Positions 19,844 to 47,887 of a stretch of 64,000 bases of DNA are shown piece by piece. Below the pieces are notes generated by a model that searched no databases, had not been told where the DNA came from, and saw only the letters and a list, made by a program, of their open reading frames with translations. Each line of letters starts with the position of its first letter. Position 1 is the stretch's first letter. This DNA is from Candidatus Eiseniibacteriota bacterium (GTDB taxonomy: Bacteria > Eisenbacteria > RBG-16-71-46 > CAVPCR01): contig CAWGMA010000003.1 of assembly GCA_963823555.1 (NCBI GenBank), positions 608,001-672,000 on the forward strand. The letters run 5' to 3'. Made by a program: the position numbers and the translations under genes.

Positions 19844-21013
19844 CGTAGTGTCCGAAAAGTCGATCGTGCTGCCGGAGCGCCAGATACGGTGCATCTGGTA
19901 GCCTCGTCGCATGCTTGACTCCATCCGCTTCCGCCTCTTCCTGGCCACCTTCGCTGGCTGGGTTGGTCGGCGCCAGACCCGTGCGATCGCCTATCTTATA
20001 GAAGAGAACCGCGTGCTGAAGGAACAGCTCCAGTCTGGCGGCCGCCGTCTGCGCTTCACCGACGACCAGCGTCGCCGGCTGGCCGCCAAGGGTAAGCCGT
20101 TGGGTCGCCGACTCCTTGAGCAGATCGCCACGATCGTGACCCCGGACACCATCCTGGCCTGGCATCGGCGGCTGATCGCCGCGAAGTGGACCTATCCCCA
20201 CAGGGGCGTTGGTCGACCCGGGGTCATGAAGGAGATCCGCGAGCTGGTGGTGCGGATGGCGGAGGAGAACCCGAGCTGGGGCTATGCGCGAATCCAGGGT
20301 GCGCTGAAGCACCTTGACCACCGTGTGGCTCGCAGCACGATCGCGAGGGTGCTGAAGGAGCACGGCATCAAGCCGTCGCCAGAGCGACCGATGAGTTGGG
20401 CGACGTTCGTCCGAGCACATGCCACCGCCATCGCGGCGGCGGACTTGTTCACCACGGAGGTGTGGACCGCTCGGGGCCTGGTCCGGTACTTCACGTTGTT
20501 CGTGATCGACATCGCAACCCGCCGTGTCCACATCGCCGGGACGACGGCGAACCCGAGTTCGGTGTGGATGGTGCAGATGGCGCGGAACCTGACGGACTGC
20601 GGCACTGGCTTCCTGGTCGGGAAACGGTACCTGATCATCGATCGGGATTCGATCTTCTCGCCGCGCTTCAAGGCGATTCTGGAAGGTGCCGGTGTCGAGA
20701 TCCTGCTCACGGCGTACCAGGCGCCGAACATGAACGCCTATGCCGAGCGTTTCGTGCGGTCGATCAAGTCGGAGTGCCTGGCCCGGATGATCTTCCTGGG
20801 GCGAAGGTCCCTCGACCGGGCGATCGCCGAGTACGCAGCGCACTACCATGACGAGCGGAGCCACCAGGGGATCGGGAACGAGCTTATCGGCGGTGCGGTG
20901 GCGCAGCGGGAAGGTGTCGTCGGCACCAGCGAACGGTTGGGTGGCCTGCTCAAGTACTATCACCGACAGGCAGCTTGAGATGCGCGTCGTCGATCGAGTT
21001 TTCGGACAGCACG
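19844..21013 (+). mobile_element. IS481/rve-type element; transposase 19911-20978
   Basis: [34 protein letters not shown]. TIRs CGTAGTGTCCGAAAAGTCGATCG / CGATCGAGTTTTCGGACAGCACG. Confidence 0.9.
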
Positions 21014-21334
21014 GGCGGGAACCCGTCGTTGGACCAGACGCAGCGGCGCGATTCTGCTTGACGCGGAATCGCCCCTACACTAGCCTTCACGTAGGTTTCC
21101 AGAGGTACCGGAAACCACTAGGCAAAGGCAGGCCGTCGCTCGTAGGTCCGCCTGGGGGCCGTCCTTCGTGGGCCCGACCTACCTCATGCCCGGGATCCCC
21201 TCCTCAGGCAGCCAGTCAAGTAATAGCCCACCCGGAATACGTTTCGGGTCCGCGCTTAGCAGGGACGCTGGCGTCCTCGTCTGAGGGGCTCGTGTCGCGG
21301 GCCGGTCCTTCCGGCCAGTGAGGGGGGAGATGCA

Positions 21335-21685
21335 ATGAGACTCGAATCTCTCGTACTTGTGTTTGGTCTGCTCATGGTGACGTCGCTTCCTTCGTCGGCG
21401 GACTGCATTCACGGATGCAGCACGATAAGCGTAGGCATACTGGATTACGTGAGGATCACCCAGCCGGTTGAATCGGACTGCAGCCCCGATTGCTCAGCGG
21501 GAACCGGCACCCAGTATCGCATTGAGATCCTCGACGGTACCTGTGGCGGAGATGTAATGGACGAAGGTGACTTCTGCACGTCAGAGCCCATCACCGCCGG
21601 TAAGATCTATCAAGTCATCGCTATCAGCAGCGGGTGTTCGGGAACCCCGCAGGGATGCGTAAAGATCTGCGGCCCATGCGATTAA
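21335..21685 (+). CDS. Small secreted Cys-rich peptide (module 1)
   Basis: Signal peptide; ends CVKICGPCD; directly upstream of a beta-helix gene. Confidence 0.75.
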   Translation: MRLESLVLVFGLLMVTSLPSSADCIHGCSTISVGILDYVRITQPVESDCSPDCSAGTGTQYRIEILDGTCGGDVMDEGDFCTSEPITAGKIYQVIAISSGCSGTPQGCVKICGPCD

Positions 21686-21784
21686 TCACCTTGCAGCGCT
21701 GCCGCACTGCATTCTGACGCCTCGGGGGCCCTTTGGCCTCCGGTTTGGGCATGGCTCATAACGGCTCATAAGAGGAGTCATGAC

Positions 21785-23284
21785 ATGGAAGCGCATGCGG
21801 CGAGGGGACCGAAGGCCCGGTGGATGTGGGCCGGCATCGGCCTTGTCCTGATTGCCGGCGCGCGGACGGAGGGAGCAACGCGGCGAGTGCCGGCGGACTT
21901 CCCGACCATCCAGCTTGCCATCGATGCGTCCGAAACGTCCGGTGATACGGTGCTCGTGAGCCCGGGGACCTACGTCGAGAACATCGAGATCCTACACAAG
22001 GACATCGTGCTCCTGAGTGCGGAAGGTCCCGAGATAACCATCATTGACGGCAGCCAGCCGTCAAACCCTGACACGGCATCTGTTGCATTCCTGCTCGGCG
22101 TCGGAATTGGAGGGAAGACCGAGGGCTTCACCATGCGGGGAGGGGCAGGCGCAATCGGTGTTATCTCAGGAGTGGGCACCGGAGGCGGTGGCATCTGCAT
22201 TGTCGATTCCATCGATGAAGGCCCGACGATCCAGGGCAACTGGATTCTCCACAACATGGCCACTCGTGGTGGCGGCGTGCTTGTTGCGGGCGCAGCTCGC
22301 GTCCTTGGCAACCGCATCGCATTCAACACGGCAGAAGACGGAGGGGGCGGCATTGGGATCTTTGAATCGGGTCTTCCAACTAGTACGCCGCGCCGATTGA
22401 TTGCCGACAATGAGATCTTCTTGAATCAAGCATCCAGCGGAGGTGGGATCGCCTATGTTCCCTTCAACGGAGGCGCCGGGTTCGATGGGGTCGACATCCT
22501 GGGCAATGTGGTGGCCTGCAATCAAGCGGTAAGCCAAGGGGGTGGAATGCGGGTATCAGGCCACCCGGGGAGCACGCGTATCGAGGGGAACACGATTTTC
22601 GGGAACTGGAGCCAGCAGCTAGGGGGCGCGATGTACCTCTGGGTGCTGTCCGGCAACCAGCTCGAGGTCCAAGGCAACGTGGTGGTCTACAATCTCGGCG
22701 GAAACGCCGTGGACTGCTCTGATCTCCCCGGCCCGCAACCGATGTTCACTTGTAACGACATCTTCGGCAACCAGCCGACGAACTCGGTCGGTGAGGTGTG
22801 CGGGGAGGTGCTGGGATTAAACAACAACTTCAGTCTCGACCCCGCGTTCGGCAGTGCCGACTGCGCCCCGACAGAACCCTACCATTTCTGCCTTCTTTCG
22901 GGATCGCCACTGCTACCCGAGAACTCGCCTCCGGGCTGCGGGCTGATCGGAGCGCGGGGGGCGTGCGCATGGGTCGGGATCGAAGTGTCCGAGCCGACTC
23001 CTCGTGCGGATCCGGCGGTGCTCCCAGCCCAGCCCAACCCCTTTGCCGAGCGGACGGCGATGCCGATCGATCTCCCTGAGGCAGCCGAAATCCGGGTTCA
23101 GATCGTGAACGCCCGCGGCGCTGCGGTCATCGAGCTGACGCCGGGTCGTTTTCCGGCAGGGGAGCATCGCGTTACCTGGGACGGACGTGACGCGCGCGGT
23201 CGCCGGTGTCCGGCAGGTGTCTACTTCGCGAGGATGCAGGCGGGAGAGCGGCAGTTCCAGAGCCGGCTTCTGCTGCTGCGTTGA
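21785..23284 (+). CDS. Secreted beta-helix protein with FlgD-like C-terminal domain (module 1)
   Basis: VPADFPTIQLAID, GGGI repeats, PNPF...WDGRD...AGVYFARM. Confidence 0.87.
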   Translation: MEAHAARGPKARWMWAGIGLVLIAGARTEGATRRVPADFPTIQLAIDASETSGDTVLVSPGTYVENIEILHKDIVLLSAEGPEITIIDGSQPSNPDTASVAFLLGVGIGGKTEGFTMRGGAGAIGVISGVGTGGGGICIVDSIDEGPTIQGNWILHNMATRGGGVLVAGAARVLGNRIAFNTAEDGGGGIGIFESGLPTSTPRRLIADNEIFLNQASSGGGIAYVPFNGGAGFDGVDILGNVVACNQAVSQGGGMRVSGHPGSTRIEGNTIFGNWSQQLGGAMYLWVLSGNQLEVQGNVVVYNLGGNAVDCSDLPGPQPMFTCNDIFGNQPTNSVGEVCGEVLGLNNNFSLDPAFGSADCAPTEPYHFCLLSGSPLLPENSPPGCGLIGARGACAWVGIEVSEPTPRADPAVLPAQPNPFAERTAMPIDLPEAAEIRVQIVNARGAAVIELTPGRFPAGEHRVTWDGRDARGRRCPAGVYFARMQAGERQFQSRLLLLR

Positions 23285-23315
23285 CCGCGTGGCCGGGGCC
23301 GCGTACTGCTATATC

Positions 23316-24215
23316 TGTCCGTCCCGAAAACTCCGTAGCGCGGGTCCGTTGCGCTTTTGGGCGCGTAGTGTCCGAAAATACGATCGTGCTGCCAGGACGC
23401 CATTTACAGCGCATCTGATAGCATCGTTGGATGCTCGATGCCATCCGCTTCCGCCTCTTCCTGGCCCCTCAGCACACCATTCCCCTGAGCCTCTCGAACA
23501 TCTCCTCGTCGGATACATGGGTATAGACGACTGACCGTCCCGAAAACTCCGAGTCGCGGTTCCATCTGTCTGTCCGTCCCGAAAACTCCGTATCGCGGGT
23601 CCGTTGCGCTGTTGGGCCGGATGGATCCTCGGAATGCTGGTTGGCAGCATGATCCTGGTGGAACCGAAGAGCACGAGTGCTGGGAGTCGCTGTGGTTGGC
23701 GCGTTCGGGACACGCGTAGTTGTCCGAAAAGTCGATCGCGCTGCAAGGACGCCAGTTACAGCGCACCTGATAGAATCGTCGGATGCTCGATGCCATCCGC
23801 TTCCGCCTCTTCCTGGCTACTTTCGCCGGCTGGGTTGGCCGTCGCCAGGCCCGTGCAATCACCTATCTTATAGAGGCTCTTCCGGGAATCGTGTGGGTAA
23901 ACGGGTGCCGATCGGAGAGCCGTGGATACTGACGCCCCGAAGCCTGGGGCTTGGACAGCGGCCCACTCCCCACCTCTCCCGTCAAGCCGCTGCCCACAGT
24001 CTCCACGGCTCCAACAACTTAGAAGCTGTCGCATGATTTCCCCCGCCCCGGCCTTGAGGCGTCGGGCCCGGCGCGATCGGAGCCCTCGGGCGCTGGCTCC
24101 CTGGTTTCACGCACACGAAAGCCGGAAGAGCCCTTATAGAAGAGAACCGCGTCCTGAAGGAACAGCTCCAGTCGGGCGGTCGCCGCCTGCGCTTCACCGA
24201 CGACCAGCGCCGCCG
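23316..24215. mobile_element. Mosaic of IS ends and fragments
   Basis: Three TGTCCGTCCCGAAAACTCC-like ends of the 46452 element, two left ends of the 19844 element, and a tyrosine recombinase C-terminus at 23469-23530. Confidence 0.75.
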
Positions 24216-24481
24216 AGCTTGACAGCCTCGATGAACAGGTATCAAATCGTATCGGCGGTCTCCCGGCTAGGGAAGCCCCTTCGAACCGACCACGTGGCTG
24301 TGCCCACAGCGGTTCACCCGCCCTGGACGCTCCAGCGGCCTGTTCGTTGAGCCCCTACCGGGCGATCCATGGAATCGTCGTGGCGCGGAGGGAGATCCCC
24401 GGTCACGAAGAGCAGGCAGGGTAGAGTTCATTACTATTCCTAGGCTTGCCGGGATCAGATTGAATCATGGAGGGTGCTCTA

Positions 24482-24721
24482 ATGAAGACGACCGCTTTAG
24501 CCGTCATTCTCGTCTCTGCTGTCGCCGTTGCCACCGCTGTGGCTCCCGATCTTGCTTGGGCTCAGCCCGAATGCACCGAAGTCTGGTTTCAGTTGGAGGA
24601 CCCGCTGCATGACCCCCCATGCACCTGCACGATTGTTGCTACCGAGAGCATCCTGTCAGGCGACTACCTGATCCAGGAGGTCGATGGCGCTTGCTTCATG
24701 GTATGTCAACCTTGTCCATAG
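24482..24721 (+). CDS. Small secreted Cys-rich peptide (module 2)
   Basis: GGAGG RBS; signal peptide, AQPEC...DPPC...SILSGDY...CFMVCQPCP. Confidence 0.8.
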   Translation: MKTTALAVILVSAVAVATAVAPDLAWAQPECTEVWFQLEDPLHDPPCTCTIVATESILSGDYLIQEVDGACFMVCQPCP

Positions 24722-24730
24722 TCTAACGTC

Positions 24731-27070
24731 ATGAGTGCATTAACACACGGCCGGGCACTTCACCGCTGGCAAGCCACCAGAGCAGGTTCCCCTTGGCGCC
24801 ACGGCTGGGGACTTGCTCTTGCTCTGGCGTTGGCGTCCACTCCCAGCGCCGCCCTGACCATTCTGGTTCCTGGGAATGCCCCGACGATCCAGGGGGGAAT
24901 CGATCTTGCCGCCCCAGGCGACACCGTCGTTGTTGCCGCGGGTATCTACACAGGTGCTGGCAACCGTAGCCTCAACTTCTCCGGCAAGGCGTTGGTACTG
25001 CGGTCGGCGGCTGGACCAGCAGCCACCACCATCGATTGCCAGAACCTTGCTCGGGGCTTCGTGTTTGAAACAGCGGAGACGCCCCTCACAATCGTTCAGG
25101 GCTTCACGATTCGGAACGGTCTCGCAGCACTTGATTATGGCGGGGGCATGATCATGTCCGGCTCATCGCCTACCATTCGCGACTGCGTCATAACGAATAG
25201 CCATGCCAACAGTGGTGGTGCTCTCTTTCTCAGCCAAGCGTCACCGCAGCTCGAGGGATGCACGCTCTCGGCCAACAGCGCCGACAACTGGGGCGGGGCC
25301 ATCTATTGCGAGAGCTCCTCTCATCTCACCTTCACTGACTGTGTCGTCGCTGACAACTCCTCGGCGATGGGCGCCGGCATCTACGCGCTTGCCGGCACGG
25401 AACTCGCGATCAGTCGCTGTAGCTTCATGCGGAACATCCCGGTGAATCTCGCTGGAGGTATTTTCGCCCAGGGTGCCACGGTTGGCATCAGGGGTTCCAG
25501 CTTTAGCGCAAACGAAGGCAAGTATGGAGGTGGCATCTACGGCATCGACGGATGCTCAGTCACCGTGGATAGTTGCTCCTTTTCAATGAATGTCGCGGAC
25601 TTCGCCGGTGGTGGATTGTACACAGACCAATCGTCTCTGTCTCTGGCCGGGTGTACATTCCAGGGCAATCGAACCACGACGGAGGCCCCTCCAGGCATCA
25701 ACGGGGGAGGGGCCGGTCTTCACGCCGAGACCTTTGCCTTGCCCACTGCTGTCTTCTCGATGTCAGACTGCGTGTTCACGGATAATGAGACCTTCGGTGC
25801 CGGTGCCGATGGGGGAGGTGCGTTCGTCAAATTCGGTCAGACCCCGCGGATGACAGTGGAGCGCTGTGTCTTTTCGGAGAATCATGCGGATCGATATGGC
25901 GGAGGTGCGCGCGTATTTGGCGCTCCATACACGATTCGGGACTGCGCATTCAGCGGCAACACGGCTGGCAATGATGGGGGTGGGCTCGAGGCCAGCGGGG
26001 GGGTGGGTCAGGAGTGTCTCATAGTCGACTGCGTGATCACCAACAATCACAGTGGTACACGGGGGGGCGGGCTAGAACCCGGTGCCGGCAGTGGGTCGCT
26101 GACAATCTCCGGGTGCACCATTGCAGAGAATACCGCGGCGATTGAGGGCGGAGGAATCCGGTATCTTGTCTCCCCTACCGTCACTTCCTCACCAACGTTG
26201 TTGATCGAGAGCTGTCAGTTTACCCGGAACAGCGCTGGCCAGGGGGGCGGTGTCTACGTGCGGACCGGTTCGCCGTATGGTACTGGGGACACGAGGATCA
26301 CCAATTGCCTGTTTGATCGGAATGCGGCCACGATGGGCGGTGGGATCGCTGTCATGCCGCATCAGGGTAACGGTGCCGCTAGCATTGAAGGCTGCACATT
26401 GGTCAACGGTGCTTCGCCGGACGGGGGAGGGCTCAAGGTCGGCTCACTCTATGGGACATGGGGGAGCCGGACGGTCAGCGTCGAGGTCGCAAACTCGATC
26501 ATCGCATTTGGCGAAGCCGGGGTGGCAGTGAGTGTCGATACGCTGAGTACGGCTGTGCTGTCTTGCACGGACATCTTCGGCAATGCGGGCGGCGATTGGA
26601 CCGGACGGATCGCCGACCAACTTGGGATCAACGGTTGCTTCTCGGCGGACCCGCTCTTCTGCAATGCGGTGGCTGGAGATTACACACTGGCGGAAACCTC
26701 GCCCTGCGCCCCCGCGCATTCGCCGGTAGGGTGCGGGCTGATCGGGGCTCACCCGGTAGCGTGTGCGGCACCGATCGGGGTGGCGGATGAGGGAGCGCCG
26801 AGGATTGGCCCGCTCCTGCGTGTGCTGCCGAACCCGCTGCGGGGGGCGGGGACGATCGAGTGGATGGGAGCAGGGGTCGCGTCTGAGTTGCGGCTCTACG
26901 ACGCCGCAGGCCGACTGGTGGCGAGGCAGAGGGGTGAGGGCAGCCGCGGCCGGATGTCGTGGAGCGACCTGACCAGAGGCGGTGATGTGGCTTCAGGGGT
27001 GTACTTTCTGGAGTTGGGGTCGGACGGTGGAGGAGTGGCTGCTCGGTCGCGGCTCGTGGTGATTAGGTAG
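24731..27070 (+). CDS. Secreted beta-helix protein with constant FlgD-like C-terminus (module 2)
   Basis: PTIQGGID, GGAI/FxxN repeats, SGVYFLELG. Confidence 0.9.
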   Translation: MSALTHGRALHRWQATRAGSPWRHGWGLALALALASTPSAALTILVPGNAPTIQGGIDLAAPGDTVVVAAGIYTGAGNRSLNFSGKALVLRSAAGPAATTIDCQNLARGFVFETAETPLTIVQGFTIRNGLAALDYGGGMIMSGSSPTIRDCVITNSHANSGGALFLSQASPQLEGCTLSANSADNWGGAIYCESSSHLTFTDCVVADNSSAMGAGIYALAGTELAISRCSFMRNIPVNLAGGIFAQGATVGIRGSSFSANEGKYGGGIYGIDGCSVTVDSCSFSMNVADFAGGGLYTDQSSLSLAGCTFQGNRTTTEAPPGINGGGAGLHAETFALPTAVFSMSDCVFTDNETFGAGADGGGAFVKFGQTPRMTVERCVFSENHADRYGGGARVFGAPYTIRDCAFSGNTAGNDGGGLEASGGVGQECLIVDCVITNNHSGTRGGGLEPGAGSGSLTISGCTIAENTAAIEGGGIRYLVSPTVTSSPTLLIESCQFTRNSAGQGGGVYVRTGSPYGTGDTRITNCLFDRNAATMGGGIAVMPHQGNGAASIEGCTLVNGASPDGGGLKVGSLYGTWGSRTVSVEVANSIIAFGEAGVAVSVDTLSTAVLSCTDIFGNAGGDWTGRIADQLGINGCFSADPLFCNAVAGDYTLAETSPCAPAHSPVGCGLIGAHPVACAAPIGVADEGAPRIGPLLRVLPNPLRGAGTIEWMGAGVASELRLYDAAGRLVARQRGEGSRGRMSWSDLTRGGDVASGVYFLELGSDGGGVAARSRLVVIR

Positions 27071-27108
27071 GGGGGCGAGCGCCGGGGGCCGCGGCAGAGA
27101 CGGAGAGT

Positions 27109-27418
27109 GGTTCGCATACCGTCCCATTTGGGGAGCCATCGTGCGGAGTCGCGAACTGCAAGCGGCTCCGTGGTTGACAGGAGACCCCGACGGAGAGATC
27201 CGCCGGGGTCTCGTTCTTATGCGAGAAATGGCACCGAGTTGCGGGTGCAAGCGCGGCGGGTGCGACTCTCTGTTTGCGAACCGGGGGAGTTGGCGGCCCG
27301 AGGTGGCGTCGCGAAATGGGCGGTTGGCGGGCGAAACTCTCTCTTCCACGGCGAGAGTCGGAGAACTGGTTAACAGGTGTGGCCTACTTGGGGGGCCAAG
27401 TAGGACGGGTTTCGAGAA
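27109..27418. repeat. Repeat X copy 2, starting with the att-like core
   Basis: GGTTCGCATACCGTCCCATTTGGGGAGCCA...CCAAGTAGGACGGGTTTCGA. Confidence 0.75.
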
Positions 27419-27692
27419 CGCTTGGTCCGGTGCTCGTGACGCTGCGCACATCGCATAATCGCGGCAAGGCGTCTTGCACCTTCACGGCGACCCAGGAATC
27501 TACAAAGAGAATTGTAGCCATTCAGCGTCGCGCGGACTTGTTCACGCTACTGGCGCGGCGTAACGTTGAAGGCGTGGGAACCTGGGCAGGCCGCCTAGGA
27601 CAAGACCCAGTCCCGGCACGTGGGAGCAGCGACTCGGAGGATTCCAATGATATCCCGGCGACTTTTCGGCGATATTGGCCGCGTGGCGATCC

Positions 27693-27847
27693 CGTAGTGT
27701 CCGAAAAGTCGATCGTGCTGCCAGGACGCCAGTTACGGTGCATCTGGTAGCATCGTCGGATGCTTGATGCCATCCGCTTTCGCTTCTTCCTGGTCCCTCA
27801 GCACACCATCATCCCCCTCAGCCTCTCGAACATCCCCTCGTCCGACG
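27693..27847. mobile_element. IS481 left end fused to tyrosine recombinase 3' end
   Basis: Same chimeric junction (CTTCCTGGYCCCTCAGCACACCAT) as at 23364-23530. Confidence 0.7.
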
Positions 27848-27953
27848 GATGGATCGAAGCTGCAACGGGCGTTCCAGATTCCGCGTTCATGTTGCATTCG
27901 AGTTTCAACTTCACCTTTCGGCAGATCGGTTTCCTACAAGGCCGGATTTCTGC

Positions 27954-28120
27954 TTGCCAGGGTGTGAAGCGAGGAGCATCCTTGAACTCGGTTCCCCGGC
28001 TCGGACCGCGAGCCGGGCCCCAGGCCAGACCTCACCGCCCGGCGACCCCACGCGGGTCCCGGCGCCAAGCCGCCCGACGATGAGGCCCGACGAGCAAGGA
28101 GTTTCAGCGGGAGGTGGGTT
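27954..28120 (+). promoter_or_regulatory. Conserved promoter plus structured leader, copy 2
   Basis: TTGCCA-N17-CATCCT; CCGGCTC..GAGCCGG hairpin; AGGCCAGACCTCACCGCC core. Confidence 0.72.
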
Positions 28121-28507
28121 GTGAAGGCAAGTGTTCTCTTCGTGATGCTCGTGACAATGGTGGGACTGAGCTACGGGGTGTGCGCGGCGCAACCCGATTG
28201 TACGAACGTCTACCTGAAGATCTACGATCCAGTAAGCGATCCACCGTGTGGGGACCAATCCGGCGTGACCACGGGTTGGTTCATCCACGTGACTTCGTCG
28301 CCGTCCTCAGTCAATGGTGGGACGTGCTCAACGTTCTCGCTCAACCAGCTCTACGCCGACGTTGACTTCTTTAACACTCTGGGCTGCGGCACGCAGCATG
28401 TCTTTACCTGTGACATCGCAGCGAGCTCAAGCATCCTTTCCGGATACTACGAGCTTGATGACCTGGGTGATGGCTGTTTCCGGGTGTGTGAGACATGCAC
28501 CCCGTAA
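28121..28507 (+). CDS. Small secreted Cys-rich peptide (module 3)
   Basis: GGAGG plus GTG; signal peptide; ends CFRVCETCTP. Confidence 0.82.
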   Translation: MKASVLFVMLVTMVGLSYGVCAAQPDCTNVYLKIYDPVSDPPCGDQSGVTTGWFIHVTSSPSSVNGGTCSTFSLNQLYADVDFFNTLGCGTQHVFTCDIAASSSILSGYYELDDLGDGCFRVCETCTP

Positions 28508-28593
28508 GGAGGGGGAATCGGAGCCTCAAACTATGGGGACTGCGCGATTCGGTCCCCGGAGCTAGGGCGAGCGCATTGAGTCGTCAGGGACGA

Positions 28594-30795
28594 ATGGACT
28601 ACATGGGAGCTATACTAATCTCTGTCTTCCTGCTTCAAACGACAATCATCGCACCGGCTCTTGGAGGAATAGTTCATGTCCCTTCGGAGCAATCGACCAT
28701 TCAGGAGGGGATCAACACTGCCGCACTTGGTGATACCGTCCTCGTCGCTCCGGGAACCTACGTTGGCGCCCTGAACCGTAACCTCGATTTCGGTGGCAAG
28801 AACTTGGTCCTCCGATCCTCCGGGGGCGCTGCCATCACGATGATCGACTGCCAGAGCCAAGGTCGTGCGCTGCACTTCCACAGCGGCGAGTCGGTTGCTG
28901 CAATGGTGGAGGGTTTCACGATCCGAAACGGACTTGCTGCCGGCACCGTCGGCGGTGGGCTGTTGATCGAAGGTGGAGCGACGCCGACTATCAAAGAATG
29001 CCACCTGGAAGCGAATCACGCGATCACGGGTGGTGGGGTCTTTGTGGCTTCGGCGGTGACGTTGATCGACTGCGATCTCGAGGGAAACATCGCGGACAAC
29101 TGGGGCGGTGGGATCTACGCCGAGAGCGCCATACTGAGCGCTCGGGGCTGTGCGCTGACGCGGAACGGAGCTGGGATCGGTGCCGGGATGTATGTGACGC
29201 TCGGCACCACGGCAATGGTGTCCGACTGTAACTTCACGGAGAACTCGCCTGTGAACCGGGCAGGAGGGATTCACGGGTCGGGGTCGTCGTTCATCGTCCA
29301 GAGGTGCAGCTTTGTCGAGAACACGGGGCGGGAGGGAGCGGGAATGTGGCTTCTCGGAGGGACCGCGACCATCGATAGCTGCACTTTCATCATGAACATG
29401 GCGCAGTTCAGCGGAGGTGCAATACGGGCGGAGGGTGTAGAGGGCTTCCGGCTGACTGGGTCAATGCTGAGAGATAACACTGCGCTTGAGCATGAGATTG
29501 GCTACGACTTTACGGGCGGAGGGGGACTCGCCTATCGGAACAGAGGGGCGCTAAGCGTCGGACCCTACATAGCTGACAGCATATTCCTCGCAAATCGGGC
29601 CCTTGGACTGCCTGCGATTGGAGTTGGAGGATACGGTGGTGGCATGCGGATTGCCAGCGGATCGGGCGACAGCTTGCTTGTGGAGCGCTGCCAGTTCATC
29701 GGCAATCATGCCGACGACGTTGGGGGAGGGGCGGACGCTCCCGGAGTCTATCGGAGCTGCATTTTCGAGGGGAATAGCGCCAACGCCTGCGGAGGCTTGA
29801 GTGGCGGGCTCGAGCTGAGCGACTGCCGATTCACGGACAATCATGCGCTCACTGTGGGTGGAGCGTGCATACCGAGCCGTGGCATCATCATTCGCTGTGA
29901 GTTTTCTGGCAATTCTGCGAGTCAAAACGGAGGGGCTTTGCGGTGGGTGTATTTCAGCCCTCTATTCATTGAGGACTCGCGATTCGCGGACAACTATGCG
30001 AACCAGGGGGGCGGCGTCTTCATGTACAACGTGGATCCGGCCTCGATTACGGGATCTACATTCGAAGGCAACACGGCTACGACCGACGGCGGCGCCCTGA
30101 GCATCTGGGGGCCGGCATCTCCAGCATCTGTTACGCTGTCGGGCTGCACCCTGGTAGGAAACAGCTCACCGGTAGGAGGGGGCGTGTCGGTGAGGATACC
30201 GGTCAATATAGAGAACACGATCATCGCCTTCGGCATGGAGGGGGAAGCAGTGACCTGCATGGGCGACGGAGTCGGCGTGATGTCGTGCACTAATATCATC
30301 GGAAACGCCGGCGGCGATTGGACGGGATGCATCGCCGACCAACTCGGGATCGACGGGAACTTCTCGGCGGACCCGCTCTTCTGCAATGCGGTGGCTGGAG
30401 ACTACACGCTGGCGGAAACCTCGCCCTGCGCCCCCGCGCATTCCCCGGTAGGGTGCGGGCTGATCGGGGCTCACCCGGTGGCATGTGCTGAGCCGATCGG
30501 CGTGGCGGATGAAGGAGCACCAAGGATTGGCCCGCTCCTGCGCGTGTTGCCGAACCCGCTGCGGGGGACGGGGACGATTGAGTGGATGGGAGCAAGGGTC
30601 GCGCCTGAGTTGCGGCTTTACGACGCCGCGGGTCGACTGGTGGCGAGGCGGAGCGGCGAGGGGGGCGGTGGCCGGATGTCGTGGAGCGAGCTGACCAGAG
30701 GCGGTGATATGGCCTCAGGGGTGTACTTCTTGGAGCTCGGGACCGGCGGCGGAGGTGAGGTGGCTATTCGATCGCGGCTAGTGGTGATCAGGTAG
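28594..30795 (+). CDS. Secreted beta-helix protein with constant FlgD-like C-terminus (module 3)
   Basis: Paralog of 24731 and 31849; start uncertain (ORF opens at 28495). Confidence 0.9.
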   Translation: MDYMGAILISVFLLQTTIIAPALGGIVHVPSEQSTIQEGINTAALGDTVLVAPGTYVGALNRNLDFGGKNLVLRSSGGAAITMIDCQSQGRALHFHSGESVAAMVEGFTIRNGLAAGTVGGGLLIEGGATPTIKECHLEANHAITGGGVFVASAVTLIDCDLEGNIADNWGGGIYAESAILSARGCALTRNGAGIGAGMYVTLGTTAMVSDCNFTENSPVNRAGGIHGSGSSFIVQRCSFVENTGREGAGMWLLGGTATIDSCTFIMNMAQFSGGAIRAEGVEGFRLTGSMLRDNTALEHEIGYDFTGGGGLAYRNRGALSVGPYIADSIFLANRALGLPAIGVGGYGGGMRIASGSGDSLLVERCQFIGNHADDVGGGADAPGVYRSCIFEGNSANACGGLSGGLELSDCRFTDNHALTVGGACIPSRGIIIRCEFSGNSASQNGGALRWVYFSPLFIEDSRFADNYANQGGGVFMYNVDPASITGSTFEGNTATTDGGALSIWGPASPASVTLSGCTLVGNSSPVGGGVSVRIPVNIENTIIAFGMEGEAVTCMGDGVGVMSCTNIIGNAGGDWTGCIADQLGIDGNFSADPLFCNAVAGDYTLAETSPCAPAHSPVGCGLIGAHPVACAEPIGVADEGAPRIGPLLRVLPNPLRGTGTIEWMGARVAPELRLYDAAGRLVARRSGEGGGGRMSWSELTRGGDMASGVYFLELGTGGGGEVAIRSRLVVIR

Positions 30796-30845
30796 GCGGG
30801 CCGAGCACCGGAGGACGAGTAGAGGGCGCCACAGAGGCGGAGAGT

Positions 30846-31088
30846 GGTTCGCAAACAGTCCCACTTGGGGAGCCAAATGTGGCTGTCTGCGAGGCGAGAT
30901 GGGTACGGTAGTCCGTACCACACCTCGACCGTCAGGCGGTCATGAACGAGCACCTTCTTCACTACTTGGTGGAAGAGGTGCTTCTTTTGTGGGTTCGTTC
31001 CGGCGGCCATCACCTGCTCGAAGTCGTCGATGAGTGCGGCAACTCGCTCGCGGTCAAGTGCGGGCAGTTCGAGTTGCTCGACAGCCAT
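30846..31088 (-). pseudogene. Large serine recombinase C-terminal remnant with att-like core (30846-30875)
   Basis: [43 protein letters not shown]...HIWLPKWDCLRT. Confidence 0.55.
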
Positions 31089-31390
31089 GTGTTATCGATC
31101 AAGGGACACAGCTACCGGCTGCGGGAACGCACCCTGGCCACGACCCAGGCCCCTGCTCTCGCCCCGGCCTGAGCAGACTCGGAACCAGAAAGGAGGTCAG
31201 AACTTACCGTGATCAGCCCGGATCCTCAGCAGGGGTGGTCCACTTTTCGCCGTTCACCTTGGACCAGTTTTCAATGTTCGTTGACAATCGCTAGCTGAGC
31301 ACCGTCCCCGACCCCGAGGGGACATCGAACCCGACGATCAGGGGACATCTTAACCCGGTGATTCGGGGACATGCCGATCCGACGTTGACA
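31085..31390 (+). mobile_element. IS21-family remnants: istB C-terminus and two right ends
   Basis: HVLSIKGHSYRLRE*. Ends ...GTTGACA at 31286 and 31390; the second has three GGGGACAT internal repeats. Confidence 0.65.
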
Positions 31391-31771
31391 AGAGAAAGTG
31401 CTGCAGCGCATGCCCGTAGTGCCCGGTCGCCTCCAGACCGAATCGCACCTCGCTGCTGCCACTGGCAGCGCGCGCCAACTCGACCCGCTCCAACAGCTTG
31501 GCGAACCCCTCCCGGTCGTTGCTGAAGGAGAACGGCCGCTGAAAACGGCCGTCAGGAAGCCGGATCGCGGCCACGTGGCGTCGCTTTGCCACGTCGATGC
31601 CCACCACCAGCACACCGGACTTGATCGGAAGCCGACCGTTCGCTTTACTCGCCATGGGACTGCCTCCTCGTTGCTCGAGCCAAAGACCTTACGACCTTCG
31701 ACTCGGCAGCTTGGGACAGTCCTCCTACTTCTTCAAGACTGCCGTCTCCCCGCCTGTCCGCTTATAGCACT
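31391..31771 (-). mobile_element. IS110-family remnant: left non-coding end plus N-terminal DEDD transposase (ATG 31655)
   Basis: VVGIDVAKRRH, GLEATGHY. Truncated by an IS21 end; the left end abuts the att-like core. Confidence 0.8.
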
Positions 31772-31848
31772 CTCCCCAAGTGGGACGGTTTGCGAACCAT
31801 TCTCCGCCTCTGTGGCGATCTCTACTCGTCCTCCGCTACTCGGCCCGC

Positions 31849-34083
31849 CTACCTGATCACCACAAGCCGGACCCGAGCAGCCACCTCTCCGCCGCCGTCC
31901 GACCCCAGCTCCAGAAAGTACACCCCTGAGGCCATATCACCGCCTCTGGTCAGCTCGCTCCACGACATCCGGCCACCGCCCCCCTCACCGCTCCGCCTCG
32001 CCACCAGTCGACCCCCGACGTCGTAGAGCCGCAACTCAGGCACAACCCCTGCTCCCATCCACTCGATCGTCCCCACACCCCGCAGCGGGTTCGGCAGCAC
32101 TCGCAGGAGCGGGCTAATCCTCGGCGCTCCTTCATCCGCAATGCCGATCGGTGCCGCACACGCCACCGGGTGAGCCCCGATCAGCCCGCACCCTACCGGG
32201 GAATGCGCGGGGGCGCAGGGCGAGGTTTCCGCCAGCGTGTAGTCTCCAGCCACCGCATTGCAGAAGAGCGGGTCGGCAGAGAAGCAACCGTTGATTCCCA
32301 GCTGATCCGCGATGCACCCGGTCCAGTCGCCCCCTGCGTTCCCATAGATATTGGTGCAGGACAGCACCGGTGGTACTGCTTGACAGCGGATGGCCTCCCC
32401 CCCCGCTCCAAAGGCAATGATCGAGTTCTCAATCGATACCGGTAGCCCCGAGATCACTCCCCCCCCAAGGGGCGCCCCGTTCCCGACCAATGTGCATCTG
32501 GAGAACATCACATGAAGGGATGTGGCGGGTCCCGTTACGGCGACCCCTCCCCCAGTGCTGCCAGCTGTGTTTTGCTCAAAGGTACAGCCACTAACAGATG
32601 CACTCCGATCGTTGTACATAAAAACTCCGCCGCCTTCACTAGCGTAGTTTCCGGAGAACCAGCTGTCTTCGATCACAAGTTCCTGGAATGTGATCCAGTA
32701 CAGCCCCCCTCCCCGGCGGCTTGCCGAATTGCGATGGAATTCGCAATGGATGACAGCAGCCCCCGGCACAGCGCCACCCGACGGAATGCACCCGCCTCCA
32801 TCGAGGAAGGCGTAGTTTTGGTCAAAGCGGCAGTCAGTTATTTCCTTTCCACCCCACAGCCCTCCTCCAGACAGGGCGCTATTGCCCTCGAAGACACAAT
32901 CGCGCAGGCGACCACTGCAGTTTGCCCCCCCGCCGACATGATCAGCGTGATTGTTCACGAACTCGCAACGCTCGACAAGCGCGTCGCGAGAGCCGATCGA
33001 CATTCCTCCGCCCGCCGCACCGCTGTTCTCTGTACCAAGCGAGCGGTTCGAAACGAATCTGCTGTCTGCAATGTATGGTTCGATATTCAATTGCTCAAAG
33101 GCCAAGAAGTGAATACCTCCGCCACCCGCGTACGTGGATGCAGGCACAGACAGCGTCGCGTTGTCTTCGAATGTGCATCCCGTAACCCTGAACGACTCCA
33201 CTCTCTCTGCTCGTATCCCCCCACCACTCCAATCCGCTGCATTCTGTCTGAACGTGCAGTCATTAACGCTAGCGGTTCCACCGAGGAGGTACATCCCTGC
33301 ACCCTCTTTGCCCCTGTTCTCCACAAAGCTACATCGTTCGACCGTGAGATCGCAGCCTGAGGAATAGACTCCCCCAGCTCTATTGACCGGTATGTTGGCC
33401 ACGAAGCTGCAGTCGGACAAGGTCGCCGACGCCCCAAGCGTCACATATACCGCCGCCCCGATACTCGCAACGTTCTGAGAAAACGAACAACCCGCAGCAT
33501 CAACGATCGCGCTCTCCGCGTACAGGCCACCGCCCCAGTTGTCGGCCGCGTTGCCTGCGAACTCGCAGTCGACGAGTGCCACGCTTGATGAAACAAAAAC
33601 CCCGCCACCCGCGTTCGCATGGTTCGACTCGAAGCGGCACTCGACTAGCATCGGCGTGGCCGCCCCCTCAATCAGTACCGCCCCTCCAAAGGTCCCTTGC
33701 GCAGACCCACTCCGGATCGTGAAGCCGCTGACCAGCGCCGCCTCCCCGGAGTGGAAGTGAATCCCTCTCCCCAGCCCCTGGCAATCTATGACCGTCATCA
33801 TTGCTCCACTCGAAGAGAGGAGAACGAGGTCCTTGCCGAGGAAATCCAGGTTGCGATTGCCGGGTCCGGTGTAGGTGCCCGAGGCAACGAGGACGGTGTC
33901 GCCGGAGGATGCGGCGCTCAGTCCAGCTTGGATTGTCGGCTCAACAGAGGGGACATGGATTACCCCAGCCCCAGCCGACTTGGCAATCCCCAAGGCGACG
34001 ACGACAGAGAGACGTAGCACCTGCTTTGTGAAAGACAACTGCTCGCCTGATCTAGGCAGTTGCAGGCCTGATGAGTACGGCAT
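31849..34083 (-). CDS. Secreted beta-helix protein with constant FlgD-like C-terminus (module 4)
   Basis: Inverted paralog of 28594-30795. Confidence 0.9.
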   Translation of the reverse strand: MPYSSGLQLPRSGEQLSFTKQVLRLSVVVALGIAKSAGAGVIHVPSVEPTIQAGLSAASSGDTVLVASGTYTGPGNRNLDFLGKDLVLLSSSGAMMTVIDCQGLGRGIHFHSGEAALVSGFTIRSGSAQGTFGGAVLIEGAATPMLVECRFESNHANAGGGVFVSSSVALVDCEFAGNAADNWGGGLYAESAIVDAAGCSFSQNVASIGAAVYVTLGASATLSDCSFVANIPVNRAGGVYSSGCDLTVERCSFVENRGKEGAGMYLLGGTASVNDCTFRQNAADWSGGGIRAERVESFRVTGCTFEDNATLSVPASTYAGGGGIHFLAFEQLNIEPYIADSRFVSNRSLGTENSGAAGGGMSIGSRDALVERCEFVNNHADHVGGGANCSGRLRDCVFEGNSALSGGGLWGGKEITDCRFDQNYAFLDGGGCIPSGGAVPGAAVIHCEFHRNSASRRGGGLYWITFQELVIEDSWFSGNYASEGGGVFMYNDRSASVSGCTFEQNTAGSTGGGVAVTGPATSLHVMFSRCTLVGNGAPLGGGVISGLPVSIENSIIAFGAGGEAIRCQAVPPVLSCTNIYGNAGGDWTGCIADQLGINGCFSADPLFCNAVAGDYTLAETSPCAPAHSPVGCGLIGAHPVACAAPIGIADEGAPRISPLLRVLPNPLRGVGTIEWMGAGVVPELRLYDVGGRLVARRSGEGGGGRMSWSELTRGGDMASGVYFLELGSDGGGEVAARVRLVVIR

Positions 34084-34092
34084 GGCGGATCC

Positions 34093-34479
34093 CTATGGTG
34101 CGCACGTCTCACAGACTGTAATGCACCCTCCACTTTCGGCGGTAACGGGATAGTAGCCAGACAAATCACTTCCAGTTGCCACGATATCACAGGTGAATTG
34201 GTAGTTCACGCCACAACCGGTTCCTGCGTAGAACTCGACATCGGTGTAGAGGTTGTCGAGAGCGAAGCTAGAGCAAGAACCCGCGCTGATTGAGGTAGGA
34301 CACGAAGTAACCCGGATGGACCAGCTGGTCGTTATGCTTGCATTGTCCCCACAGGGCGGGTCGCTCACGGGATCGTAGATCCTCAAGTACACGTTCGCGC
34401 ATTCTGGCTGTGCCGTGCACACGCCGTAGCTCAGTCCCACCATTGCCACGAGCATCACGAAAAGGACACTTGCCTTCAT
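34093..34479 (-). CDS. Small secreted Cys-rich peptide (module 4)
   Basis: MKASVLFVMLVAMVGLSYGVC...CITVCETCAP; same length as the module 3 peptide. Confidence 0.82.
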   Translation of the reverse strand: MKASVLFVMLVAMVGLSYGVCTAQPECANVYLRIYDPVSDPPCGDNASITTSWSIRVTSCPTSISAGSCSSFALDNLYTDVEFYAGTGCGVNYQFTCDIVATGSDLSGYYPVTAESGGCITVCETCAP

Positions 34480-34646
34480 GATCCACCTCCCGCTGGACTC
34501 CAGTTGCTCGTCGGGCCTCATCGTCGGGCGGCTTGGCGCCGGGACCTGCGTGGGTCGCCGGGCGGTGAGGTCTGGCCTGGTCCCAGCTCGCGATTGAGCC
34601 GGCGGCCACGCTTTCCAGAGTGCTCCTGCGATCGACCCAGAAGCAA
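34480..34646 (-). promoter_or_regulatory. Conserved promoter plus structured leader, copy 3
   Basis: TTGCTT-N18-CACTCT; same AGGCCAGACCTCACCGCC core. Confidence 0.72.
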
Positions 34647-34812
34647 GCGGAGAATCTGCGGGCGGTGGCAATTACGATAAGAGGTTATCCAGGTTGCTGT
34701 TACATGAGAAGCTGAGATTTCGTCCGGCGCGCCGACGCGGATGGCAGGGGCAGGGTTCTGCAGCCTTGACCCGCCGTCCCCCCGAGGCACCATTGGCTCC
34801 GAGGACCAACCC

Positions 34813-35251
34813 ATGCCCCACCTTTCCCCTACCACCCTAACCGCCGCCGAGCAGCGTAGCCTGCTGGTTGCGACGGCTGCACGCCCCCGCGGCCACACCA
34901 TCTTCTCGCTGGCCCTCAGCACCGGCCTGAGACTGGGCGAGATCGTTGGCCTCAACGTCGGTGACGTGTACCACCCCGACGGCACGCCTCGCACTCGTGT
35001 TCACTTGCGCCGCGAGATCGCGAAGGGCGGGCGAGCTGGCGACGTGTTCCTACCCGACGCGCTGGTCGAGAAGCTTGCGCGGTTCTGGCTCTACAAACAG
35101 GCGCGCCACGAGCGTCTCGATGCCTCATCCCCGCTCTTCTGCAAACCAGGGGCGACGCCGCATCTCACGGCGCCGGGTGCAGGTGCTCTTCCGGGCTTGG
35201 CAAACCGTCGCCGGGTTCTCGCGGCTTTATCCCTTCCACGCCTTGCGCCAT
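34813..35251 (+). pseudogene. Most complete tyrosine recombinase copy; frameshift near 35143, 3' end lost
   Basis: TGLRLGE, IAKGGRAGDV, then YPFHALRH in the shifted frame; catalytic Tyr region missing. Confidence 0.82.
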
Positions 35252-35404
35252 TATGCCGCGCTCCGGATTATGCCGCGGAGACTTGGAAAGTGCTTGTTTG
35301 GCAAGCAGTTAACGCTGCGGAGCTGCACGACGACGCGGCATAAGCCTAACGTCTCCTCACCTGGTCGCAGTGCCAGAGGAGGAGGAGACATGAGAGGAGG
35401 ATTT

Positions 35405-35815
35405 CGCTTCGGCCCGGCTGTGGGCCACCGTCCACGCCGCGGTCGCTAAGGAGATGGCATGCAGCAGGCCGGACCGGACGTGCCGCGTCCAGCCTTTCGG
35501 CAGCAGCGCGACGGGCTGCGAGATGTGAAAGGACACCATCCTGCGCCTCCCGTGAATTCCCCTGCGGGACCGACCGCTCACACAGGATAACATCCTTCTG
35601 CGCAACACGTTCCACCGCCGTGGCGGGGCCCCGAGATTCGGTGGACCAGTTCAGTGACACGCGAGTGGACATCATCCTGCGCCTCCCGGAATTCAACCGC
35701 GAGATCGTTCACTCGCACAGGATAACATCCACCACATTAACAGGTTCGACCACTGAAGCGCGGCGCCGAGATTCGCTGGACTAGTTCAGGCAGCACGATC
35801 GACTGTTGGACAGCG
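35405..35815 (-). mobile_element. Nested family-Z left ends plus an IS481 end remnant
   Basis: LPKGWTRHVRSGLLHAISLA; two GTCCA(C/G)CGAATCTCGG ends. Confidence 0.65.
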
Positions 35816-35826
35816 CGAGTTTCATA

Positions 35827-37266
35827 CTAGCGTACTCGGACAACCGGGAGCACGCTTTCGCGGCGTCCAACGCGCGCCCTGAGGAAGTATACGCCAGGAG
35901 GCACGGCATGGCCTTCCGCGTCAACTCCAGACCATTGCCACCGATGGGCCCCCGGAGAACCGGCGCACGCCACGACAGTCGCTACGCGTCTCCCCTGCGG
36001 ATCAAAGACGGCGATTTCGATCGTGTCCGCATGTTCCATTGCCAGCTCGATTGAAATCGAAGATCTGAATGGACTCGGGAACGCGGTGAGGCGGAGTGGT
36101 GCAGAAAGAGATCCAGCGTCATTGATTCCGATGAGCGGACAGGGCCCCACCGCTCCGATGAGTCCACATCCCGGCGGGGAGTTCTCTGGAAGAAGCGGCG
36201 ATCCCGGGAGCAGACAGAACGAGCCAAAGGGTAGATCGTAGCAACCTCCGATCCCATACAGCGGATCCTCGGAGATGTTACCTTCCACTCCGATGGCATC
36301 CTCGCAGGTGCCGATGATATTCGCGGGTGTGTTCCCGGCTAGGTTGTTGCATTCAAGAGCAATCGTCCCGGGCGAAAAGACGCACTCCAGTCCATATCCA
36401 TCGTTATCCGTAATGCAGTTATTTCGAAACGCGAGCGTTTGCCCTGCTCCTGGGCTAAGCACGACGGTAGCCGTTGGCGGATCGCTGAGACTCCGGTTAA
36501 CAACGAAGGTGTTACCCTCGATGAGCGAAGACGGGCCGCTTGCGGAGCCGATGAGTGCTCCCGCAGCATGCTTTGCCCAATTGCAGACGATGAGGTTCTC
36601 TCGCATTACAGCCGTATAGGCGTAGATGCCACCGCCGCTGTTGGAGGCGGTCGTCAAGAAGGTGTTGGCGAATATCTCGTTGCGCTCAAGGACAAGCTCG
36701 GATCCTTGTGACATCTGATAGATCCCCACTCCGCTCCCGTTCAACGACTCGATCGAATTCGCATAGATCTTGTTGTCCGTGAGCCGCGCCACTGAGGCAA
36801 CACAGACGCCCGCTCCTCCTCCTCCGGCGAGAGGCCCTGGCTCGAGTCGGTTGTCTGTAATCCAGTTGTTCCTAAGAAGCGGACCAGGATAGGATCCGGA
36901 GCCCACATATATTCCACCTCCCAGACGCCCAAAGGGCCGTGTCAGCCCCGATCCCCCCCGGATCGTGAATCCATCGATGACCGTGCCCGGTCCTGGGCTG
37001 AAGACACGTAACGTGGTGATGTCCTCTCCGGAGCCGTCGATGATCGTCTGCTCCGGACCTGCAAAGCTCTTGAGAACAAGATCGACCGCGATTATGGGAT
37101 TTTCCAGATAGACTCCCGGATGCACAAGAACCGTATCACCCGGTGCAGATGCATCAACGGCCGCCTGGATTGTGGCATACTGAGTAGGGACCACCCTCGT
37201 TCCGCCAAGAACGGTCCGGCTGCCAAGCAAGCAGCACGATAGAAGAAGGACAGATCGCCAGTGCAT
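35827..37266 (-). CDS. Secreted beta-helix protein with FlgD-like C-terminal domain (module 5)
   Basis: MHWRSVLLLSCC...VPTQYATIQAAVD...PPGVYFLRA; closest to the module 1 protein (SPLLPENSPPGCGLIGA). Confidence 0.87.
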   Translation of the reverse strand: MHWRSVLLLSCCLLGSRTVLGGTRVVPTQYATIQAAVDASAPGDTVLVHPGVYLENPIIAVDLVLKSFAGPEQTIIDGSGEDITTLRVFSPGPGTVIDGFTIRGGSGLTRPFGRLGGGIYVGSGSYPGPLLRNNWITDNRLEPGPLAGGGGAGVCVASVARLTDNKIYANSIESLNGSGVGIYQMSQGSELVLERNEIFANTFLTTASNSGGGIYAYTAVMRENLIVCNWAKHAAGALIGSASGPSSLIEGNTFVVNRSLSDPPTATVVLSPGAGQTLAFRNNCITDNDGYGLECVFSPGTIALECNNLAGNTPANIIGTCEDAIGVEGNISEDPLYGIGGCYDLPFGSFCLLPGSPLLPENSPPGCGLIGAVGPCPLIGINDAGSLSAPLRLTAFPSPFRSSISIELAMEHADTIEIAVFDPQGRRVATVVACAGSPGAHRWQWSGVDAEGHAVPPGVYFLRARVGRRESVLPVVRVR

Positions 37267-37277
37267 GCTACTTCTAG

Positions 37278-37619
37278 CTATGGGCTGCACTTGCAGAGTT
37301 CGATGCAGTTGCCGTTCACGCTGTCGACCCGATATATGGCATTGACCTCCAGGCTGACCGCATGAATCGTAGGCCCCGCACACTCGCTTTGCTGTGTGCA
37401 GGTAGAGGCCGTACACGTGGAGTACTGGTTCAGGAAGGTATTATTGCAGGCACTTGTGTTCACTGACATGTCGAATGACACGATGTGGAGGTACTGGTAG
37501 AGAGAGGGGACGGTGCCGGACTGAACATAGGCTGGTTTGAGATCACAGTCCGGATCGGCGTAGGCGAGGGGGAAGGCCACAATGAGTGCGAGGACGGCGA
37601 AGCAAAGGACGATCTTCAT
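37278..37619 (-). CDS. Small secreted Cys-rich peptide (module 5)
   Basis: AAGGAG RBS; signal peptide; ends CIELCKCSP. Confidence 0.8.
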   Translation of the reverse strand: MKIVLCFAVLALIVAFPLAYADPDCDLKPAYVQSGTVPSLYQYLHIVSFDMSVNTSACNNTFLNQYSTCTASTCTQQSECAGPTIHAVSLEVNAIYRVDSVNGNCIELCKCSP

Positions 37620-37775
37620 GACGACTCCTTACGCTGGCATGCTGGCAACTCGCCAGACCAATCACTAACGCCGGGACCTCGTGGGGTCGCCAGGCGGTGA
37701 GGTCTGGCCTGATCCCAGGCTCCTATGAGCCGTAGAACCGAGTTCAAGGATGCTCCCCGGATCGCCCAGAAACAA
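37620..37775 (-). promoter_or_regulatory. Conserved promoter plus structured leader, copy 4
   Basis: TTGTTT-N17-CATCCT; GGCTC-ATAG-GAGCC; GCCAGACC pairs with downstream GGTCTGGC. Confidence 0.72.
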
Positions 37776-37802
37776 GCGAAACATCAGCGGGAGGTGAGAC
37801 TG

Positions 37803-47838: not shown

Positions 47839-47887
47839 AATGATCTCCTGATCAGCGAAATGAACATCCTGGCGGGTGACTGCTGAA

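Follow-up and report, generated by a model that had tools for sequence, protein, structure and literature searches.

Among described systems, the closest to the one presented here are the potempins of Tannerella forsythia. These are barrels of 98-132 amino acids (AA), made as precursors of 118-152 AA and encoded just upstream of peptidases of a type IX secretion system (T9SS), with gaps to the cargo gene that are mostly ≤5 nucleotides (nt), each potempin inhibiting its own peptidase (PMC9890683). The range given for type IX secretion is Fibrobacteres-Chlorobi-Bacteroidota (PMC11969387), and the Eisenbacteria host of the present locus lies outside it. Here we analyzed a stretch of 64,000 nt of that host genome (G000:C3:608001-672000; the window, whose positions are given as bare coordinates), which carries five modules (m1-m5), each one consisting of a gene for a small, secreted, Cys-rich peptide directly upstream of a gene for a beta-helix protein, its partner. 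We propose, at slightly less than even confidence, that the peptide may bind its own downstream beta-helix as a guard or cap, the partner being likely secreted by a type IX-like system. Labels beginning with L denote loci, L063, L083 and L097 being from metagenomes, and those beginning with P database homologs; G036 and G038 are other genomes.

Five peptide-partner gene pairs

An earlier note on this DNA had described five bicistrons, and all ten of their open reading frames (ORFs) were found open where it had placed them, with gaps from peptide stop to partner start of 99, 9, 86, 9 and 11 nt for m1 to m5. The peptide ends are likewise as it described them, with hydrophobic N-termini and a C-terminus that reads CxxxCxxC in m1-m4 and CxxxCxC in m5. 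Its statement that all ten ORFs are intact is accurate for the reading frames and fails for peptide m2, which lacks 51 core residues; beta-helix partners are present in all five modules, while the FlgD-like tail it assigned to each gives FlgD_ig matches above the Pfam cut-off for m1 and m5 only. The m1 and m5 peptide-partner junctions are bridged by contigs from public runs of other studies, thus they are not assembly artefacts. The ten genes are as follows.

21335..21685 (+) peptide m1, 116 AA, 10 Cys, divergent family member
21785..23284 (+) partner m1, 499 AA, short beta-helix, FlgD_ig/T9SS-A tail
24482..24721 (+) peptide m2, 79 AA, in-frame deletion of 51 AA relative to P0004, likely decayed
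24731..27070 (+) partner m2, 779 AA, long Pmp-repeat beta-helix, T9SS-A-like tail
28121..28507 (+) peptide m3, 128 AA, 8 conserved Cys, AlphaFold2 all-beta model
28594..30795 (+) partner m3, 733 AA, long beta-helix, T9SS-A-like tail
31849..34083 (-) partner m4, 744 AA, long beta-helix, T9SS-A-like tail
34093..34479 (-) peptide m4, 128 AA, 63% identity to m3
35827..37266 (-) partner m5, 479 AA, short beta-helix, FlgD_ig tail
37278..37619 (-) peptide m5, 113 AA, CxxxCxC subfamily

The peptide gene lies directly upstream of the partner gene in 5/5 copies of the window and in 2/2 distinct metagenome loci (L097, and L063=L083, which are overlapping copies), whose partners belong to the m3/m4 clade; in G038 the peptide adjoins a gene for a beta-helix with a tail, the two genes lying tail to tail. 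The earlier note had proposed checking whether peptide homologs are linked to beta-helix genes, and they adjoin one at every locus with readable context, a count outside which stand about 20 other homologs (P0003-P0029, P0151). Linked partners fall into at least two separate clades of a quick tree of 70 N-terminal domains, where they are mixed with unlinked genes: a short group (m1, m5) and a long group (m2-m4, a sixth copy on C2, L083 and L097). The starred branches of the partner tree require at least two changes, and 0/500 shuffles were as clustered. Comparison of peptide and partner divergence, also suggested in that note, gave identities that track each other (peptide/partner 79/85% for L097-L083, 63/62% for m3-m4, 47/49% for m2-m3 and 19/42% for m1-m5), though co-transfer alone could give the same.

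The peptide family

Family membership was assessed by leave-one-out profile scores against 300 shuffles. Peptides m3, m4 and m5 scored 139, 150 and 40 bits, none of the 300 shuffles being as high in each case, and m2 scored 68 bits against the family minus P0004 (0/300 as high). Peptide m1 alone fails this procedure (4.5 bits, 16/300 shuffles as high); together with its relative P0151 it matches the family in hhalign (95.7%, E 1e-8). By these profile comparisons the five window peptides are one family, m1 being joined through P0151. Database searches retrieved 7 outside members at first and then 21 proteins in all at E ≤0.001, 3 of which were left out, being long (910-2733 AA) with many short matches. 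The ratio of nonsynonymous to synonymous substitution rates (dN/dS) is 0.17 for peptides m3/m4 and 0.28 for L097/L083, that is, purifying selection, indicating that the peptides are real genes.

Most members carry about 8 Cys beyond the signal peptide, an even set spread along the chain, and the three terminal Cys are invariant across the family. The motif CxxCH is absent, the peptides have no secretion tail of their own, and the lipobox [LVI][ASTVI][GAS]C was found in 0/26 peptides with an N-terminus (3 rows with truncated or extended starts were left out). Searches of Pfam, NCBIfam and PDB sequences gave no meaningful match, so that the check for a characterised family, raised in the earlier note, came out clear in these three databases. 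The AlphaFold2 model of peptide m3 is all-beta, with a mean predicted local distance difference test (pLDDT) value of 82; its best structural matches are OB-folds, with Z 4.1 (root mean square deviation 3.3, 66 aligned) and 3.9, none reaching Z 5 among 48,161 chains, and matches at Z ≤4.1 are too weak to name the fold. Foldseek gave no match for the model at E ≤0.001, and the ESM Atlas yielded no usable match for the peptides, its model of P0026 being poor. The peptide fold is thus predicted as all-beta and weakly OB-like.

The family is rare, as it was found in 2/206 phylum genomes (1/206 with the first alignment), the second genome being G038, of the same order as G000. The m1 profile added only one weak match, inside a 1046-AA frame. 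No relative was detected by alignment-based scans of metagenome and viral contigs; among pattern-scan matches, 3/69 in metagenomes, 1/19 in genome contigs and 0/6 in viral contigs were real family matches, the three from metagenomes representing the two distinct loci already mentioned. Four other small Cys-rich ORFs and C2:576314 were tried as members and rejected, since 3-73/300 shuffles scored as high. A small protein ending in CxxxCxC at C4:5638, upstream of a beta-helix gene, was borderline (8.8 bits, 0/300; hhalign 12.9%) and was not counted; it lies in a block (G000:C4:4396-8775) nearly identical to C2:714564-718941, the C2 copy being frameshifted. A literature search that covered few subscription papers found no description of the peptide family. 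On its sequence, this family is new, rare and unnamed, in a known kind of architecture.

Peptide m2 (79 AA) corresponds to P0004 (130 AA) minus 51 central residues, in frame, with two conserved Cys gone, and a contig of run X4 agrees with the window as far as the deletion junction at 24622, beyond which it diverges, as expected of a full-length allele. In the sixth copy (G000:C2:704200) only the last 14 peptide codons are left, followed by an intact partner. Both of these partners being intact, the peptide is not needed in cis. Another central in-frame deletion, independent of that in m2, was seen in P0025 relative to P0016, with the signal peptide, the first strand and the terminal Cys hairpin kept.

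Beta-helix partners and type IX secretion

All five partners are beta-helix/Pmp-repeat proteins that start with a signal peptide and end in an Ig-like tail. Their repeats are GGA(I/L/V) and FxxN (PF02415, TIGR01376), and Rhombotarget A was matched in a profile search (9cdu, E 3e-4). TIGR04183, the model for T9SS type A, matches above its cut-off in m1 and at E 6e-5 to 8e-3 in the other four, the tails of m2-m4 scoring 22.9, 20.6 and 17.2 bits, below the cut-off of 23. Pfam detected a peptidase domain in 0/5 partners, and the weak NCBIfam peptidase-model matches of m1 and m5 cover the tail only; no catalytic family was above cut-off among the five in Pfam, NCBIfam or profile searches, and a C-terminal autotransporter beta-barrel is absent from 5/5. 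Many partner homologs carry precomputed matches to PF22842, which we take to be a lyase-type beta-helix family. Using a profile of the five partners, 42 beta-helix genes with a partner-type N-terminus were counted in G000, along with 149 ORFs with a partner-type tail, and strong partner homologs were found in 20/206 phylum genomes.

SprA and PorV of G000 are above cut-offs (TIGR04189, NF033709), and a PF01364 gene (C25 peptidase, PorU-like) adjoins a PorV gene at G000:C1:703-706 kb. Given SprA, PorV and a PorU-like protein in the host, the FlgD-like tails of the partners are likely type IX-type sorting signals. Searches of G000 for GldM and GldN gave no match, nor did they in the control genomes. 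The type IX system of G000 is possibly a reduced one, beyond the phyla usually listed. Within the same limited coverage of subscription papers, we found no paper joining Eisenbacteria with type IX secretion, or FlgD with Gemmatimonad. Overall, G000 gave SprA, a number of PorV paralogs and 21 matches to C25 peptidases (C1:1890-1897 kb, C1:703-706 kb). As a separate observation, 100 stop-to-stop ORFs genome-wide end in [ST]WGx[IVL]K (for example, window 47876-49096 and 2569-3597), and this ending is likely a second signal for secretion or anchoring in the lineage, of very short length.

The upstream leader element

A leader of about 190 nt precedes three of the modules and is absent from m1 and m2.

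27930..28120 (+) upstream element of m3, hairpin and predicted three-way junction
34480..34667 (-) upstream element of m4
37621..37800 (-) upstream element of m5, without its 3' half

The earlier note had made a structured leader a common part of the module; besides being restricted to m3, m4 and m5, it stands upstream of unrelated secreted genes. By exact pattern there are 7 copies in G000, 2 in G036 and none in any other of the 206 genomes, and viral contigs had no match to it. Outside the modules the leader lies upstream of an S8 peptidase, of two more large proteins of secreted type, of one further ORF and, in both G000 and G036, of another small Cys-rich protein, unlike the peptides, that is paired with a tailed one. 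The S8 peptidase case is in the window (5613-5801 (+) and 5560-9273), the peptidase carrying PKD and FlgD_ig domains. Upstream sequences of the metagenome modules L097 and L083 differ from the leader; these two have about 200 conserved nt in common upstream of the peptide, unrelated to it. We therefore do not count the leader among the parts that define the module: it is on 3/5 modules, precedes unrelated genes and is absent from the metagenome modules.

Rfam gave no match in the window at gathering score; over the leaders there was none at E ≤5, and 6 further leader loci were blank at E ≤1. The predicted structure is a hairpin followed by a three-way junction, in which 4/26 pairs change on both sides among 9 copies, 3 of them in the 5' hairpin; this covariation is weak, with 19/500 shuffles as high, and single-sequence folding is unremarkable (m3 z -0.6, m4 z -0.2). 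Boxes resembling -35/-10 sequences were seen by eye upstream of the leader and were not listed by a promoter scan. Judged by the genes it precedes, the leader is a lineage-specific expression element, general upstream of secreted-protein genes in the genus.

Probable stacked islets at tRNA-Asn

Tandem genomic islets at the 3' ends of tRNA genes are established. A tRNA-Asn gene, followed by a serine-recombinase element, lies 30.6 kb upstream, and the remaining features of the array, including attachment (att)-like repeats and insertion sequence (IS) genes, are listed below.

19474..19842 (-) small tyrosine recombinase remnant, C-terminal half (PF00589, E 1.6e-10, tblastn), IS-cut, divergent from m1
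19911..20978 (+) IS transposase (rve_3/HTH_21)
23459..23534 (-) tyrosine recombinase C-terminal stub, within IS debris
27109..27138 (+) att-like tRNA-Asn 3' copy, 39 nt past the partner m2 stop
27139..27415 (+) islet left end, 81% identity to the 277 nt beyond the real tRNA-Asn
30846..30875 (+) att-like tRNA-Asn 3' repeat, 51 nt past the partner m3 stop
31350..31655 (-) IS110 transposase fragment (PF01548)
31772..31817 (-) att-like repeat, truncated, beyond partner m4
34741..35343 (+) small tyrosine recombinase, frameshifted, divergent from m4
37822..39156 (+) IS256/Mutator transposase

Degenerate tRNA-Asn 3' copies occur at 11411, 14657, 27109 and 30846, with a truncated one at about 31772, and the 277 nt beyond the copies at 11411 and 27109 have 81-86% identity to the DNA beyond the real tRNA-Asn. 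A loose end of run X1 joins tRNA-Asn sequence at 27130. An att-like repeat follows 39-51 nt after the stops of partners m2, m3 and C2, and the truncated repeat closely follows that of m4; broken small tyrosine-recombinase genes stand divergently upstream of m1, m2 and m4, with a DNA-level stub before m3. In the m2-m4 and C2 partners, the last ~160 codons have a synonymous rate (dS) of 0.2-0.4, versus >1.2 or saturation upstream, which indicates that the tail was recently homogenised by recombination. We infer that the array consists of stacked tRNA-Asn islets with the gene pair as end cargo. Where the earlier note had seen a diversified cassette family maintained as such, the five-copy layout is accounted for by islet accretion at tRNA-Asn and recombination at the common 3' tail.

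Several further observations concern the same kind of element. Phage-like genes accompany the large serine recombinase element that lies beyond the tRNA-Asn at G000:C3:577370-582000, and a related recombinase lies at C2:707748, beyond the sixth partner. Between the att repeats 11411-11440 and 14657-14686 lies a glycosyltransferase-like gene of PMT/TPR type (12230-14191), in what is apparently a further islet. A long-type gene that is sister to partner m2 (G000:C1:982282-984762) has its convergent end about 110 nt from a tRNA-Leu.

Other small Cys-rich proteins in the same position

Using fixed rules in G000, 8/14 small Cys-rich exported ORFs precede a tailed cargo gene, versus ~4% expected; 5 of those 8 belong to the peptide family, so they are not independent, and the other three are split between two unrelated families. 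The tail filter passed over one more case, a ninth (C4:501 kb). A second bicistron type pairs an unrelated small 10-Cys exported protein with a downstream tailed protein, by eye a BNR/YCF48-type propeller (G000:C4:501523-503248, G000:C1:1045912-1047651 and L018 in G036:C1), with the leader on 2/3 copies. A third small family (14-16 Cys, Fn3-like by eye) lies directly upstream of short WGxIK-ending beta-helix genes (G000:C1:1047525-1049505, C1:1057060-1058760).

What the peptides may do

Under the guard or cap reading, both proteins would be exported by Sec across the inner membrane from one transcript, and the peptide would fold in the periplasm with about four disulfides and dock on its own partner, in the groove or as an N-terminal cap, blocking premature binding or activity; alternatively, it could ride with the partner through SprA/PorV. 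The peptide would be an accessory, not essential. Small islets that insert at tRNA-Asn would carry the pairs as their end cargo; for the long type, exchange would likely move the peptide gene together with the partner's variable 5' part, as a unit, onto a 3' tail that hardly varies and comprises cap, secretion signal and att site. This reading is favoured by the linkage, including the remnant before the sixth partner, by pairing with at least two partner clades, by the parallel identities, purifying selection and all-beta model, by the T9SS outer-membrane genes of the host, by the potempin precedent and by the unrelated small Cys-rich proteins in the same position. Several results weigh against it: the m2 and C2 partners are intact despite a deleted or lost peptide; the G038 pair is convergent, which excludes one transcript; a family ORF is upstream of 5/42 beta-helix genes of G000 only, which argues that the peptide is no general folding factor; 0/28 beta-helix loci of other genomes have a family match, in flanks of 1.5 kb only; the sister of partner m2 (C1:982477) has no upstream peptide; co-divergence is expected under simple co-transfer as well; and, compared with potempins, there is no lipobox in 26 peptides, no peptidase domain in the partners and a weak OB-fold score. 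Of the undescribed two-component system of the earlier note, an unnamed peptide family linked to beta-helix cargo is supported; to speak of a system that includes a structured leader goes too far, because the leader is general, partners persist without a sound peptide and most beta-helix genes have none.

It is possible, though somewhat unlikely, that the peptide acts on its own as a small secreted protein that binds a ligand or is antagonistic, sharing a promoter with the partner and linked to it via a mobile cassette. The att-like repeats and islet ends that bracket the modules, the homogenised partner tails, the persistence of partners after peptide loss and the use of the same upstream element by unrelated secreted genes would all fit; however, the linkage is seen across two distant partner clades, with differing leaders and orientations, outlasting the history of one cassette, and in readable contexts no family member lies next to a gene of an unrelated class. 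The upstream position and the co-divergence would suit a folding chaperone or nucleating cap that the beta-helix requires, and autochaperone regions are known in beta-helix passengers; yet 37/42 beta-helix genes of G000, close relatives included, have no upstream family ORF, and the family occurs in 2/206 phylum genomes versus 20/206 for strong partner homologs, which leaves this function improbable. We give similarly little credence to the beta-helix being an antibacterial or cell-wall-degrading enzyme with the peptide as its immunity protein: a small periplasmic protein with a polymorphic secreted protein (variable 5', constant 3') on mobile islets is what such pairs would look like, and many partner homologs match PF22842, presumably lyase-type, but in a true toxin-immunity pair, losing the peptide while the partner stays whole, as in m2 and C2, would carry a high cost, and no catalytic family is above cut-off. 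That the terminal CxxxCxxC is a metal or cluster site of a small redox or metal carrier draws on the three invariant terminal Cys and is very improbable, as the peptides are exported, with a mostly even set of ~8 Cys along the chain and no CxxCH, for which disulfides are simpler.

Returning to the guard or cap reading, a wider and rather doubtful extension of it is that tail-less, disulfide-bonded small proteins of Eisenbacteria may use a reduced type IX system for export, riding on their cognate tailed cargo, with at least three unrelated families using this position, and that the long-type peptide gene and variable passenger are block-swapped onto a constant, att-linked tail, forming a polymorphic surface system. 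If it is true that peptides exit on their partners, this would be a type IX route for proteins without a signal of their own. The reach of these proposals is limited by the rarity of the family and its putative function. The family would nevertheless be a new disulfide-rich one, whose natural cognate and non-cognate pairs make specificity easily testable.

Comparison with known systems

The partners resemble chlamydial Pmp and rhombotarget-type beta-helices in their GGA(I/L/V) and FxxN repeats and the Rhombotarget A profile match; in contrast to chlamydial Pmp, they have a type IX-like tail in place of an autotransporter barrel. With type A cargo of the type IX system (TIGR04183/FlgD_ig tail) they share the signal peptide and C-terminal Ig-like tail, in a host having SprA, PorV and a C25 gene beside PorV, whereas the m2-m4 tails fall below the cut-off and GldM and GldN had no match (nor had the controls). 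The array is like tandem tRNA islets in its repeated tRNA-Asn 3' copies and conserved islet end, beyond a tRNA-Asn with a serine-recombinase element, and unlike them in that the recombinases within it are broken and the cargo is almost all secreted proteins.

The likeness to the potempin/KLIKK-peptidase pairs lies in a small exported protein of ~100-130 AA immediately upstream of a gene for type IX cargo (PMC9890683), and in its repetition with divergent cognate partners; here the precursors are of 113-128 AA (79 for m2) and the gaps of 9-99 nt. Potempins are lipoproteins with peptidase partners, unlike the 0/26 lipobox count and the beta-helices without a peptidase domain found here, and their folds are beta-barrels, three of them OB-folds, compared with peptides predicted as all-beta and weakly OB-like (PMC9890683). 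Moreover, the window peptides form a single Cys-rich family. Read from their sequences, the pairs resemble the potempin system in layout and are not members of it, taking the design of a small partner with type IX cargo beyond the proteases of Tannerella, to beta-helices of an uncultured phylum that are not proteases.

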